34,744 nt of DNA from the IMG/VR virus record IMGVR_UViG_2574180160_000007; one strand, 5' to 3'. This DNA comes from a virus (taxonomy: Duplodnaviria; Heunggongvirae; Uroviricota; Caudoviricetes). Made by a program: the position numbers and the translations under genes. Under the pieces are notes generated by a model. The model did not search any database and was not told the DNA's origin. It was given only the letters and a program-made list of their open reading frames with translations. Positions 6,815-30,902 of the stretch are shown here, in pieces (positions within the stretch are counted from its first letter, which is position 1; every line of letters starts with the position of its first letter).

Positions 6815-6848
6815 TAAAAAAAGCCCGCAGCAGTGACGCCACGGGCTT
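6815..6848 (-). terminator. Intrinsic terminator between lom and stf (minus-strand orientation)
   Basis: Minus-strand hairpin AAGCCCG...CGGGCTT followed by a U-run of about 8, ending about 13 nt before the stf start codon. Confidence 0.5.
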
Positions 6849-6952
6849 CAGGACAGTGTAACTTTACGTTTCCTCAAACGCAGTTCACCCCATAAGGTGG
6901 ATGAACCTGCGTATCATAACAATATTTACAGAAGATAAATCGGCGTCTGTTG

Positions 6953-7552
6953 TCAGAAACGGTATCCGATACCAACAATAAATGCATCCGTTCGCCAGTC
7001 GCCACTACCGGAACCTTCATAAGCAAGGTCAATGGTCACGGATTCGGTCGGATTAAACTGCACGCCAGCCCCCCACGCCAGAGACGTGTTGCTGTGGCGA
7101 CCGTCATCACTTCCGGTCAGCACATCGTGCGTTTTCCCCTTGTTGTCAGTTACGCGGAGATAATCCCCGGAGAAAGTCGACACACGGCTGTAAGCCACAC
7201 CCACCATCGCATACGCGCTGAACCATTCATTCACGCGTACAGACGGCCCCGCCATCACGCTGAACCAGCGGTTACGCACGGAATCTTCATGCCAGCGGGT
7301 ATCGCTGTAGCGCGTTTTTTGCTCATCCTCAGCATTGGCATAACTGAAGGACGTAATCAGCCCCAGCGCGTCCGTAAACTCATAACGGTATTTCACGTTA
7401 ATCCCGTTCAGATCATCACTACCGGGAACGTTCGTCGAGGCATGGAGATACCCCGCGCTCAGCGTGGACTGATGTTCTGCTGCACTCGCTGGCGTAGCAG
7501 CGGCGACCTGCCAGACTACTGCGGACAAAATAACAGCACATAATTTACGCAT
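6953..7552 (-). CDS. lom: Lom outer-membrane protein (Ail/Lom family moron)
   Basis: MRKLCAVILSAVV...AAEHQSTLSAGYLHASTNVPGSDDLNGINVKYRYEF...GIGYRF, near-identical in pattern to lambda Lom; signal peptide; beta-barrel C-terminal F. Confidence 0.9.
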   Translation of the reverse strand: MRKLCAVILSAVVWQVAAATPASAAEHQSTLSAGYLHASTNVPGSDDLNGINVKYRYEFTDALGLITSFSYANAEDEQKTRYSDTRWHEDSVRNRWFSVMAGPSVRVNEWFSAYAMVGVAYSRVSTFSGDYLRVTDNKGKTHDVLTGSDDGRHSNTSLAWGAGVQFNPTESVTIDLAYEGSGSGDWRTDAFIVGIGYRF

Positions 7553-7575
7553 AATTACCTCTCGCTTTTCTGCAA

Positions 7576-7601
7576 TAAAAAAGGCGCCATTTCTGGCGCC
7601 C
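7576..7601 (-). terminator. Intrinsic terminator between J and lom
   Basis: Minus-strand GGCGCC-AGAAAT-GGCGCC hairpin followed by UUUUUU. Confidence 0.55.
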
Positions 7602-7619
7602 GTATCTGGGTTATAAAAT

Positions 7620-10600
7620 TCAGCTAATCGTGATGCCTGCAGTGGCTTTCTTCATCACCACAACCAGCAAATCGCTGATACTTGCTGTGGGATACCAGTT
7701 ATTTACCAGCCATGCTGACACCGAAAACTCCAGTGTCATGTGACCGTGACCGGCAGGCATATCAATAACACCACTGTAAATCAGCGTATTATCCAGCGCG
7801 GTACGGTTATAAATTTCAGCACCGTTTTTCCGCACTATCAGACGGCATGAGGAGTAAATATCAGTATGCTCTTTCTCATGTTTAGCGCCGCTGAATGCCA
7901 CCGCCGGAATAACAATCTGCCGGTCAAACGGCTGATCGTCATAAACCCTGACGGTAATGGTTCCTGATGGCCACCGCTCCGGTGCACGGGAGTCCCGGGG
8001 GAAAGCTTTGCCCACTGTTTTAACGAGATCGCCTTCAATCTGGTTCGCGGACAATTTTCCCAGAACCCGACAGTTCTCGTTAATCGTGACGTTGTTGAGC
8101 GTCCCGGAGTTCGCATTCACGTTACCGCTGATATCGGCATTTTTCGCCGTCAGCCGCCCGTCCGGTGTCAGGGAAAATGCCGGAGGATTACCGCCGCTGG
8201 TAATGGTGGGAGCCGTCAGATATTTCAGGAACACTTCATTCATAAATATCTGATCGCCCTGACCAACAAACATCGGCTTTGTGTTGCCATTCGCAGGATT
8301 AATCATCGCAATCCTGTCTGCCGCCAGCAGCACCTGACTCTGCATTCCTGCTGGCGTATTCTCAATACCGGCACCGATACCCGCAATATAAAGGCGTCCG
8401 TCCTGCATCTGCTGCAGTTTCACGGCCCACATGCTGTTCAGGTTATTATTTGTATCAACCTGAACTTTCTGTATCTGCTGGATTGCCGCACTCTGATTTT
8501 CCAGTTTTTTATTGACGGTCTGCGTGATTTCATTGCTGACATTCGTAATGGACGTCCTGATTTCAGCCAGGTCCGGCGCAAGCTGACCGTTATCAATCTG
8601 CGTCCACAGCTCCTGGGCCAGATGTGTTTTCCCGATTTCTCCTTTGAAAAAATCCAGGTAACCTTCCGCATCATCGCTCGCCCGACCGACAGCCTCCACG
8701 AATGCCGATTTGCCAACAGTATTCACACTGCGGATATAAAAATAATAATCATGGCCCGGTTTGATATTGATACTGGCAGCTATCCAGTACAGCGCCGAGC
8801 CAAGATAGCGGGCTGCGGTTTCAACCTGCCTGATATCCGCAATCCGCTTTTCCGAGAACCAGAACTCAAACTGTACCGTCGGGTCATAAACGGCAAGATG
8901 CGGCGTGGCGGTTATCTGAAAATAGCCCGGCGTCAGCTCAATCCGCGACGGTGCTGCCGGTGCGGCAATCCGGAAGGTGGTGGTGGCAGGTTCACCCTGC
9001 TGGCCATAGCTGTTTATCGCCCGCACCGTCAGGGTGTATTCCCCGAGCGGCAGGCCGCTGAAACGGTGCTCCGTGTCTGCGGTGATAGCGGTGGTCACCA
9101 GTCTGGCATCCGTTCCCTTACCACTGGTCAGGCGCAGACTGAAGCGCACACCCTTCACCACCCGCGGCGTGTCCCATTTCGCCTGTGCCAGATACTGGCC
9201 GTCAGCTGCGCTCACCTCCACCGTCAGGTGCTGCACTGCCGGTGGGATGACGCTGTTCAGGGAGCCTGACTGCGGCTCAAAGCGGGCACCGTTATCCACG
9301 ATGGCTTCTTTTTCCGGTACGTGCTGCACCGCCGTGATGGCAAAGGTGCCGTCCGTGTTTTCCCGGACGGAGACACAGCGGAACAGGCGACGGCGCAGTG
9401 ACGGCAGGGAGAGTCCCCACACCCCGTATGTCTCCACACCATCAGGCAGGGTACTGACCTGTATCCGGTCCGGCGCGGGGTGTGCGGTGATGTCCACACT
9501 CACCGGCTTACCGCTGCCGTTAATCAGGTTCACCGCCGATGTACCTGTCTCCGGCAGGGTAACCTCACGGTCCAGCGTCAGGGTGCGGGTGGCAGCATCA
9601 ATGGACAGGATACGTCCGCCGGTCATGGTCCCGGCATAGTCGTTATCACAGATTTCAATAATGTCACCGGGTGTGTGACGCAGCCCCTGTGACCCGAGCG
9701 TGAAGTCCACCGTCTGCGTTTCCAGCAGTTCGGTCTTTATCACCCACAGCCCGGCACGGTGGGCCTGACCGCGGCTGGTACAGCCGAACGCGTCCATCTT
9801 CAGCAGGTTGCGTCCGTAGCGCAGTATGGCTTCCGGGTCTTCCACCAGTTCCGTGGAGGTCTGCCAGCCGTTCTGCGGGTCGGTGTAATTCACCTCCACC
9901 GCCGTGTGCCGGTCCTTCAGGGCACTGAAGCTGTAGCGGAACCCCACGCCGTTATCATCCACCACCACATCGCTGTTGGTGTACGGCCACACCACATCCG
10001 ACTGGCGGTCCTGAACGAACGTCAGCGTCTGGCCGTTCCATACCGGCATACAGCGCATCGCCGAGCAGAAATCACTGAGAACGTCCCACGCCTTACGCTG
10101 TTGTGCCAGGTACGCATTAAAGGTCATCCGCGGCTCTGTGCCCCCGAAACCATCCGGGACCGTCTGGTCGCAGTACTGCCCGATGGCATACAGCGCCCAC
10201 TTGTCCACATCCGCCGCCCCCAGACGTTTTCCCATGCCGTAGCGCGGGTGAGTCAGCATGTCCCACAGACACCAGGCCGGGTTGTTGCTGTATGCCGGTT
10301 TCAGACTGCCGTCCCAGATACCACTGTACGTGCGTTTTTCCGGGTCATAGTTTGACGGCACCTGGATGATGCGACCGCGGATATGGTAGTTCACCGTCAT
10401 CTGCTGGCCGCCGAACTGCTCCGCATCCACCTGCAGCCCCACAATGGCCGTGTTCGGGTAGCACTGTTTCACATCGATAATTTCAGTGTACGATGACCAG
10501 AGCGTTCTGTTCTGCAACTGGTCCGTGGTGCTGTCCGCCGTCTCCCTGACCATCCGGATGTTAAAGGGCCGGGGCGGCAGATTATCCAGAATCACCGAGG

Positions 10601-30202: not shown

Positions 30203-30265
30203 GGATATTTATCAGGATTTATCGGTTTCTGCCCACGGACAGGTTTATCTGTTCCGGTCAGTGAC

Positions 30266-30616
30266 TTAAGGTTGTGATTCCGGAGGAGTCTTCAGAGAAC
30301 CAGTAATTATTCCCGGTAGCTTTCCTTTGTAGGTTATCCATACATTCTGCGCCTCTAAAATTACGGGGCGCTTTTCCGGCGACTGCTCATCCCCTTCACA
30401 TAACCCGGCAGCAACATCCAGGAAGACCTGTCTGATGCTCCTTCTGGCTGCTGCCTCATAAAACTCCAGCGTGGCACCTTCAACACGGTCCAGCGAGATG
30501 TCCAGGTCAAAAATTTCACCGTCAAAGCGTTTTTTGTCCCGTAACGCTAAAGTTACCGTAACTTTATTCTCAAAATTGCGGATCCCTTTCACAATCAGTT
30601 CATAGTTTTGAGTCAT
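30266..30616 (-). CDS. DUF1327-like (YdfR-like) protein between holin and endolysin
   Basis: 116 aa MTQNYELIVKGIRNFENKVTVTLALRDKKRFDGEIFDLD...; same position as ydfR in E. coli Qin-type lysis cassettes, from memory. Confidence 0.55.
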   Translation of the reverse strand: MTQNYELIVKGIRNFENKVTVTLALRDKKRFDGEIFDLDISLDRVEGATLEFYEAAARRSIRQVFLDVAAGLCEGDEQSPEKRPVILEAQNVWITYKGKLPGIITGSLKTPPESQP

Positions 30617-30620
30617 TGAA

Positions 30621-30836
30621 TTACTCTCCCCGTGCAGCCTTACGACGGTCCTCTCTGATTTTGAAATACAGGTTAGTCAGATATGTCAGCAGCCCAAACA
30701 GCAGACTCCCCAGCACGCCTATTGCCGCCCACTGAGACGGGGAAACCCTGTCCAGCAACTGCAGGAACCAGTAGCCCGTTCCCACCGCTGACGTGGTGTA
30801 TGACACACCTGTTGTGATTTTTTCCATCTGGTACAT
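30621..30836 (-). CDS. S: Class II pinholin, S21-like, dual start (71-aa form from MYQMEK; 68-aa form from the internal Met at 30827)
   Basis: [68 protein letters not shown] matches phage 21 S21 (..[36 protein letters not shown]). Confidence 0.85.
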
Positions 30837-30869
30837 ACCCCGTCTCCCGTTATCCGGAAGCTGACAACA

Positions 30870-30902
30870 ATAAAAAAAGCCACCAGTTAAGTACTGATGG
30901 CT
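30870..30902 (-). terminator. Intrinsic terminator between nanS-p and the holin gene
   Basis: Minus strand AGCCAUCAG-UACUUAA-CUGGUGGCU followed by UUUUUUU, about 35 nt before the holin start. Confidence 0.55.

Follow-up and report, generated by a model that had tools for sequence, protein, structure and literature searches.

The late operon and its six hairpins

The stretch of DNA analysed here (IMG/VR virus record IMGVR_UViG_2574180160_000007, 34,744 nucleotides, hereafter the window) corresponds to the late region (34.7 kb) of a lambdoid prophage that sits in ompW, and contains six hairpins, each followed by a run of T and located shortly ahead of a late gene, that we refer to as HP1 to HP6. 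It shares 96-99% identity with the "PPompW" prophages and with phage vB_EcoS-783R2, and 98-99.9% with prophages found in several E. coli genomes. The map of open reading frames (ORFs), together with the annotation of 98-99% identical prophages, places the late genes in a single co-directional block on the minus strand, with the following order in the direction of transcription:

Start of block: tRNA-Arg, a DUF3927 gene and the STnc100 small RNA (sRNA), then iraM (on the opposite strand) and a SASA-type sialate esterase gene
Lysis: holin, YdfR, lysozyme, Rz
Packaging and head: HNH, small and large terminase, protease-capsid fusion, portal, connector genes
Tail: tail-completion gene (called U here), major tail gene V, G/T, tape-measure gene H, M, L, K, I, J
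End of block: lom, tail fibre gene (stf), fibre assembly

In the lambda paradigm, the constitutive pR' transcript is halted at an intrinsic terminator (tR') unless Q modifies the polymerase. The positions of Q, pR' and tR' fall outside the window; in a 99.4% identical prophage, a co-directional antitermination protein gene is found after rusA, ~2.4 kb past the right end of the window.

A first-pass annotation of the letters had reported hairpins with U-tracts upstream of stf, lom, H, V, the capsid fusion and the holin. We recovered all six at the positions it gave, on the minus strand, the one that codes for the late genes, and its gene names agree with the annotation of the 98-99% identical prophages. 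The free-energy calculation that it proposed yielded values between -7.1 and -20 kcal/mol for the six stems:

HP1, 6813..6849 (stem 6849-6820), minus strand: 13-bp stem GAAGCCCGTGGCG/TGCTGCGGGCTTT with several G.U pairs, then T7; -20.0 to -20.5 kcal/mol, z -4.4; ends 12 nt from the stf start (ATG 6801) and lies 103 nt past the lom stop
HP2, 7576..7601 (stem 7601-7582), minus strand: 8-bp GC-rich stem with a GAAA loop, then T6; -15.1 to -15.7 kcal/mol, z -4.3; in the gap between the J stop (7620) and the lom ATG (7552)
HP3, 17061..17081 (stem 17081-17066), minus strand: AACCGC-TGAG-GCGGTT, then T7; -7.1 kcal/mol, or -10.8 if the A/U extension is included in the fold; in the 47 nt that separate the T stop (17090) from the ATG of tape-measure gene H (17042)
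HP4, 18517..18537 (stem 18537-18523), minus strand: CCCGC-CGCGT-GCGGG, then T6; -7.5 to -8.5 kcal/mol, z -1.4; 22 nt ahead of the ATG of major tail gene V (18500)
HP5, 24944..24968 (stem 24968-24951), minus strand: GAACCGC-TCCG-GCGGTTT, then T7; -10.3 to -10.9 kcal/mol, z -4.1; between the stop codon of the large terminase (24993) and the GTG that starts the protease-capsid fusion (24929)
HP6, 30870..30904 (stem 30904-30876), minus strand: 12-bp stem, then T7; -16.4 to -17.0 kcal/mol, z -5.3; between the stop of the sialate-esterase-like gene (30987) and the holin ATG (30836)

Together the six elements span ~27 kb. Their stems are GC-rich and 5-13 bp long, HP4 being the weakest, and enclose loops of 4-5 nt, two of which are the stable tetraloops GAAA and UCCG. 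At all six, a T6-7 run directly adjoins the stem on the minus (sense) strand, and A and further T come next. None has an A-tract 5' of its stem, so the elements are one-directional and oriented with late transcription, and bidirectional terminators were ruled out; the G.U pairs of HP1 can likewise form in the sense RNA only. The elements share a common layout of stop codon, hairpin, U6-7, Shine-Dalgarno sequence and start codon, in which the stems of HP2 to HP5 lie 8-29 nt from the upstream stop codon and an AGGAGG Shine-Dalgarno sequence directly follows the T-run ahead of V and of the capsid gene.

Placement of the hairpins

Each gap was compared with 300 dinucleotide-preserving shuffles of itself, counting those that held an equal or better hairpin with a T-tail. 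For HP1 to HP6, respectively, 0, 0, 2, 8, 1 and 0 of the 300 shuffles matched or beat the real gap. Across region 4000-33851, nine of the twelve sense-strand hairpins with a free energy of -7 kcal/mol or lower are intergenic, in gaps that amount to 2891 nt (9.7%), and only two antisense matches fall inside the same gaps. A generic, lenient terminator scan gave counts barely above expectation (25 vs 19.3 expected, and 23 vs 18.8); we dropped it as proof of enrichment because its overall counts scarcely exceed those of the shuffles, and the claim of non-random placement rests on the stricter, gap-specific tests. The signal consists of strong, intergenic, sense-oriented sites.

Conservation in related phages and prophages

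Relatives were collected via four proteins (the major tail protein, the capsid fusion, Lom and the holin). For the major tail protein we used three queries: the window's own, that of the HK97-like phage HK542 and that of a Klebsiella phage (63% identical major tail protein). A hairpin with a U-tract is present upstream of V in 79/79, 75/78 and 79/79 loci of the three phage groups (233/236 altogether). The stems differ between the groups (CCCGC/GCGGG, AGACCGC/GCGGTCT and GACCGCC/GGCGGTT) and the distance from stem to ATG is 18-24 nt in all of them. Variation within a group falls mostly in the loop, with few changes in the stem.

Tape-measure homologues were recognised by the conserved start MATLRELI. 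Each of the 52 distinct sequences ahead of the tape-measure gene, again drawn from three phage groups, has a hairpin with a U-tract, and the stems are of at least 12 types. It is kept despite a different C-terminus of T or an extra insertion of ~430 nt between T and the tape-measure gene. This junction is an insertion hot spot, at which some relatives carry an extra ~300-450 nt (L065-L067, L194, L200, L247, L248 and Klebsiella loci, for example L167 13503-13787); each insertion closes with its own hairpin and U-tract directly before the tape-measure start.

The remaining elements show comparable turnover. Among 80 loci, HP2 occurs as GGGCGCCA/TGGCGCCT in 51, GGGCGTCA/TGACGCCT in 14 and GGGCACCA/TGGTGCCT in 8, with two independent compensatory double substitutions between invariant flanks. 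HP1 is represented either by the window's allele or by a shorter one (AGCCCGCC..GGCGGGCT); both adjoin the stf start and lie 12-18 nt from it, with a lom-stf gap of either 64 or 151 nt. In the 79 loci related to HP5, the core stem is invariant, with variation in the loop (TCCG/TGCG), in the 5' flank and at the outermost position of the stem. At the 80 holin loci, the HP6 hairpin is retained with many different stems; in the E2348/69 prophage PP2, its place is taken by a different sense-strand hairpin with T6. Sakai prophage Sp10 has equivalents of all six, located on the plus strand of NC_002695.2 at 1944069-1944105 (HP6), 1950278-1950303 (HP5), 1956548-1956570 (HP4), 1957998-1958025 (HP3), 1967852-1967882 (HP2) and 1968529-1968557 (HP1).

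RNAalifold, run on a MAFFT alignment of 14 tape-measure-upstream hairpins, returned weak covariation. Stems of unequal length were out of register, which diluted the signal, and per-sequence hairpin detection was used instead. The combination of stem turnover, compensatory changes and a retained hairpin with U-tract points to selection on structure rather than on sequence. By these comparisons, the six elements are selected as structures on the sense RNA and segregate with the downstream gene.

A stem core of the form ACCGC...GCGGT with UNCG-like loops recurs across junctions and groups, at HP3, HP5 and the V-upstream sites of HK542 and Klebsiella, either by convergence or through spread by recombination; examples are window positions 17066-17081 and 24951-24968, positions 6641-6658 of locus L168 and positions 11963-11979 of locus L167. 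HP3 and HP5 have AACCGC/GCGGTT in common. We rejected the idea that they are copies of a mobile repeat, as beyond the A/T extensions they share just a 4-bp GC core. Since similar stems recur in unrelated groups, we judge their likeness to reflect probable convergence on a good terminator design.

Further hairpins in the window

The first-pass list of six is incomplete, and more terminator-like sites are present on the sense strand. We detected the following additional hairpins:

18553..18580 (stem 18580-18564), minus strand: second hairpin beside HP4, AGGTCAC-GGT-GTGACTT with a T-rich run; -6.3 kcal/mol, z -2.1
29538..29578 (stem 29578-29546), minus strand: post-lysozyme hairpin, 15 bp followed by GTTTTTAT; -21.1 kcal/mol, z -4.8; 0/300 shuffles
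33466..33495 (stem 33495-33474), minus strand: 3' hairpin of STnc100, upstream of the esterase gene; -20.3 kcal/mol, z -5.2
11198..11225: very stable palindromic hairpin in the I-J gap, with a poor U-tract on the sense strand; -27.1 kcal/mol, z -7.3

The first of these, weaker than HP4 and in tandem with it, runs over the stop codon of the tail-completion gene; its stem is compensated in one relative (AGATCAC..GTGATCT), and in others the hairpin is lost. The second lies ~90 nt past the lysozyme gene. The palindromic hairpin has a better T-tail on the plus strand (TTTTCTTTC) than on the sense strand (TTCTCTTT) and may be the leftover terminator of an antisense accessory gene. It sits just upstream of the plus-strand promoter of a PasB homologue (see below), and Sakai Sp10 has sodC at the I-J junction.

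Two smaller structures were also seen on the minus strand. Inside the M coding sequence, a terminator-like hairpin at 13586-13605 (8 bp, -11.8 to -13 kcal/mol, followed by TTTTTGTG) is conserved in Sakai Sp10. Over the Shine-Dalgarno sequence of the holin gene lies a small stem-loop at 30844-30860 (CUUCCG-GAUAA-CGGGAG), the stem of which is conserved and the loop variable in relatives. It resembles the 'sdi' structure of lambda S, which sets the holin/antiholin ratio, and the holin gene of the window has a dual-start motif (M-Y-Q-M).

Prophage sRNAs and RNase III sites

Hfq-bound prophage sRNAs (StxS/STnc100/PasD, AgvB, AsxR, HnrS and PasA-C) resemble the six elements in lying in intergenic gaps of the late region and in ending at intrinsic terminators. 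Three of them are represented in the window. STnc100 was detected with Rfam at full length at 33465-33654 (minus strand; 132 bits vs a gathering threshold of 47) and ends at a sense-strand terminator. A Sakai region with AgvB1 encoded on its other strand matches this stretch at 91.5% identity; the window lacks the AgvB/AsxR core motif. A homologue of PasB, an sRNA of enteropathogenic E. coli, lies in the I-J gap at 11299-11430 on the plus strand, antisense to the late operon. It includes the window's best promoter match (TTCACA-16-TATAAT, 11/12, at 11299-11326) and a terminator (TCCGCGATCACTGCGGG plus T7, 11406-11429). The third, the HnrS region (28120-28288, plus strand), is situated between Rz and the HNH gene, likewise antisense to the late operon; it is 96% identical to the Sakai Sp10 region that holds HnrS (EcOnc11), a 66-nt anti-silencing sRNA, the boundaries of which are approximate here. 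In Sakai, HnrS and AgvB are located in Sp10 and AsxR is antisense to stx2AB in Sp5.

None of these sRNAs matches any of the six hairpins. At gathering and E-value thresholds, no Rfam family covered any of the six; the one match, to isrK at HP3, was sub-threshold (27 bits vs a threshold of 50), and we took it as generic terminator resemblance and not as isrK identity. We rejected AgvB, AsxR, HnrS, PasA and PasB as identities for the hairpins because those sRNAs sit in other gaps, on the strand opposite the late operon. A coordinate-prefix search of the Hfq crosslinking peaks of Tree et al. (2014), covering the Sp10 equivalents of HP2 to HP6 and not that of HP1, found none at these sites. Sites of RNase III processing or retroregulation (T7 intercistronic, lambda sib) were also rejected: they typically have a duplex of ~20 bp or more, in many cases with internal loops, and among the 5-13 bp stems here only HP1 and HP6 approach one helical turn. 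For annotation, these hairpins should be taken neither for operon ends nor for sRNA genes.

Other features of the window

The gene for the anti-adapter protein IraM (33104-33439, plus strand) lies between STnc100 and the esterase gene, and is an accessory gene that would meet late transcription head-on. The portal gene consists of two ORFs with a 4-nt overlap (20034-21419 and 21416-22780, minus strand), as it does in Sakai Sp10 (ECs_1974/1975); in strain 600055, the portal is one 2586-nt gene. The split represents either a frameshift (possibly in a defective prophage) or a difference in sequencing or annotation. The Rfam family IS009 has two minus-strand matches. The first, 3459-3657 (225 bits), falls within the tail fibre assembly gene (3416-4000); the second, 2410-2613 (112 bits), lies in a region where relatives have fragments of tail fibre assembly genes.

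A probable role in insulating late genes

The first-pass annotation had offered two readings: terminators in one long late operon that are read through by Q-type antitermination, or mRNA processing and stability elements that set the stoichiometry of structural proteins. The first fits the anatomy and orientation of the hairpins, the co-directional block and the antitermination gene of the 99.4% identical prophage. The second is disfavoured by placement. The hairpins lie downstream of genes for low-copy or catalytic proteins (large terminase, tail-completion gene, T, J, lom and esterase) and upstream of the most abundant ones (capsid and major tail). Because they stand before and not after the genes for abundant proteins, the genes to gain from a 3' stabiliser or a leaky terminator would be the wrong ones.

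We consider it probable that the six elements are canonical intrinsic terminators that stop unmodified polymerase, are read through by Q-modified polymerase and keep the late genes off. From their anatomy and strand, their non-random placement and their conservation with stem turnover and compensatory changes, we infer actual termination, read-through with Q and an insulating role. According to this proposal, the six elements and at least two more would act as Rho-independent terminators on the sense strand of a single late operon. Polymerase that lacks the Q modification, whether it has leaked past tR', started spuriously or come from promoters of inserted accessory genes ("morons", here meaning lom, the esterase gene and the insertions at the T/tape-measure junction of relatives), would halt at the hairpins. 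In the lysogen, and until Q is made, lysis, head and tail genes would hence be kept silent. Once the prophage is induced, polymerase loaded at pR' and modified by Q would pass all the hairpins. The cassette would be inherited with the downstream gene, which would then be protected whatever inserts upstream. Accessory insertions are found in relatives at such junctions (T/tape measure, I/J, J/fibre and esterase/holin). An accessory gene followed by a terminator, a feature of morons (promoter-gene-terminator insertions in the sense of Juhala/Hendrix), is seen at HP1, which follows lom as in lambda, and at HP6, which follows the esterase gene. A crude consensus scan found no sigma-70 promoter of lom's own in the 30 nt between HP2 and the lom start.

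Several observations weigh against insulation. Taken singly, HP4 is the weakest of the six (5-bp stem, z -1.4, matched by 8/300 shuffles). Some homologues of HP6 lack a good U-tract though the hairpin is kept, which points to a function other than termination at that site. The same crude scan predicted no sigma-70-like sense promoter upstream of HP3, HP4 or HP5, and what there is to insulate against at these three is therefore in doubt. Rho could already deal with untranslated spurious transcripts. Lambda has no gap at U-V or T-H, so such elements are dispensable for a working late operon. Finally, a role in translation or in protection of the 5' end would also account for inheritance with the downstream gene.

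Insulation could be joined to a second job. In this rather unlikely version, the elements would be portable gene-start insulators that stop unlicensed polymerase and, once read through, standardise translation or grade the mRNA by a small loss at each site. If that is true, the cassettes would travel with late genes in mosaic genomes, allowing accessory genes to land without switching on lysis or virion genes. It would also explain why the cassette is retained before the tape-measure and major tail genes in at least three groups despite full turnover of the stems.

Graded attenuation is a possible but rather unlikely account of the whole series. Here, low-frequency termination even of Q-modified polymerase would lower the mRNA stepwise, in the order heads, tail tube, tail tip, lom, fibre, and so help to set protein ratios. 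HP3, HP2 and HP1 do stand ahead of low-copy genes (tape measure and tip, lom, fibre), the hairpin before the tape-measure gene is universal among its 52 distinct upstream sequences, and terminators of HK542 flank the major tail gene on both sides and follow the capsid gene. However, HP5 and HP4 precede the genes for the two most abundant virion proteins and follow those for a catalytic terminase and a low-copy tail-completion protein, and in the window neither the capsid gene nor V is followed by a hairpin. Lambda reaches the same stoichiometry without equivalents of HP3 to HP5, and Q-modified polymerase is highly resistant to terminators. Attenuation is tenable for HP3, HP2 and HP1 only.

The constant spacing of 18-24 nt between stem and start codon, the strong Shine-Dalgarno sequence directly after the T-run and the way the cassette accompanies the downstream gene across different upstream genes would also be expected of mRNA cassettes at gene starts. 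The hairpin would then isolate the downstream ribosome-binding site or cap a processed 5' end, the U-rich tract by the Shine-Dalgarno sequence would be a landing site for the ribosome (protein S1), and termination would be secondary; the HP6 homologues that retain a hairpin without a U-tract fit this as well. We nevertheless regard it as unlikely. The low-copy genes H, stf and lom have the same cassette, and a perfect T6-8 abutting the stem is a termination signature, far more conserved than an AU-rich leader needs to be. The tight spacing may reflect genome compaction alone.

It is quite improbable that the hairpins are neutral leftovers of module and moron accretion, that is, terminators that persist as Q antitermination makes them harmless. 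They do coincide with exact module borders (lysis, terminase/head, head completion/tube, tube/tip and J/lom/fibre), relatives carry insertions at T/tape measure and J/fibre each with its own hairpin, and three of the elements are missing in lambda. Relics would decay, however, and these elements are near-universal in three phage groups with replaced stems, vary within groups mainly in their loops with few stem changes, and at HP2 have compensatory substitutions.

We dismiss as very improbable that the hairpins are the 3' ends of sRNAs, or of 3'-UTR (untranslated region)-derived sRNAs, expressed in the lysogen like the Hfq-bound prophage sRNAs: such prophages are rich in sRNAs at conserved positions, STnc100 in the window finishes at a sense-strand terminator and ~100 nt of the lom-stf gap lie ahead of HP1, yet the six sites have no Rfam family beyond the sub-threshold isrK match at HP3, the known sRNAs AgvB, AsxR, HnrS, PasA and PasB lie elsewhere and on the other strand, the listed Hfq crosslinking peaks include none at the Sp10 counterparts of the five sites other than HP1, and HP2 to HP5 begin only 8-29 nt past the upstream stop codon with no promoter predicted.

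The question has a practical side. Lambdoid late operons of pathogenic E. coli carry toxin, lysis and virulence-linked accessory genes, and how tightly lysogens silence them matters for toxin release and for the stability of the prophage.

Comparison with known systems

In lambda, a sense-strand hairpin with a T-run is found at J-lom (18920-18935), equivalent to HP2, and another at lom-stf (19612-19633), equivalent to HP1. Lambda differs in leaving no gap at U-V or T-H, and tR' itself differs from the window's elements in that it directly follows the promoter and gives a discrete short RNA, whereas they are spread over ~27 kb. In T7, T-phi is an intrinsic-type terminator of the late unit that affects the relative dosage of structural genes; it stands after the abundant capsid gene, and T7 polymerase leaks through it. 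The hairpins of the window, in contrast, precede abundant genes.

For insulation, a terminator that guards against premature expression has been documented in Tn916. In Tn916 and Gram-positive conjugative plasmids, terminators are reported to block premature or outside-driven expression, and an element-encoded antitermination system to pass multiple terminators on activation. These elements and their antitermination factors are unrelated to those considered here, and the likeness is one of analogy only.

Within the tailed phages, a predicted intrinsic terminator has been described inside the late operon of phage L, which has a single Q-type-controlled promoter (Zaworski et al., bioRxiv 10.1101/2020.10.05.325894). 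Its authors (Casjens and colleagues) noted that intra-operon terminators are no isolated case and that their roles are unknown, and put forward the same two candidate roles as the first-pass annotation (bioRxiv 10.1101/2020.10.05.325894). Phage L is P22-like and short-tailed, and its terminator is at another junction (the end of the procapsid module), as one site and not a series.

The GenBank record of the HK97/HK022-like phage HK542 (NC_019769) marks a "rho-independent terminator" at six sites: one each downstream of the portal, capsid and major tail genes, one between the genes for the tail terminator and the major tail protein, and one each ahead of gp18 and of the tail fibre gene. The terminators at the tail terminator/major tail junction and just before the tail fibre gene correspond to what is seen in the window, and our scan detected a hairpin before the tape-measure gene as well; the layout of hairpin, T6-8, Shine-Dalgarno sequence and start is the same. 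The stems are unrelated, HK542 has extra terminators downstream of its portal, capsid and major tail genes that the window lacks, and the window has a hairpin between the large terminase and capsid genes, a junction missing from the gene order of HK542.

The annotators of HK542 already mark such terminators, so they are an ordinary feature; the phenomenon is already recognised, and the six sites of the window are further cases of it. The comparative result narrows the question of what intra-operon terminators do. To this the present analysis adds how deeply the elements are conserved, through turnover of their stems, at the V and tape-measure junctions, together with a spacing to the start codon that stays fixed and their linkage to the downstream gene.

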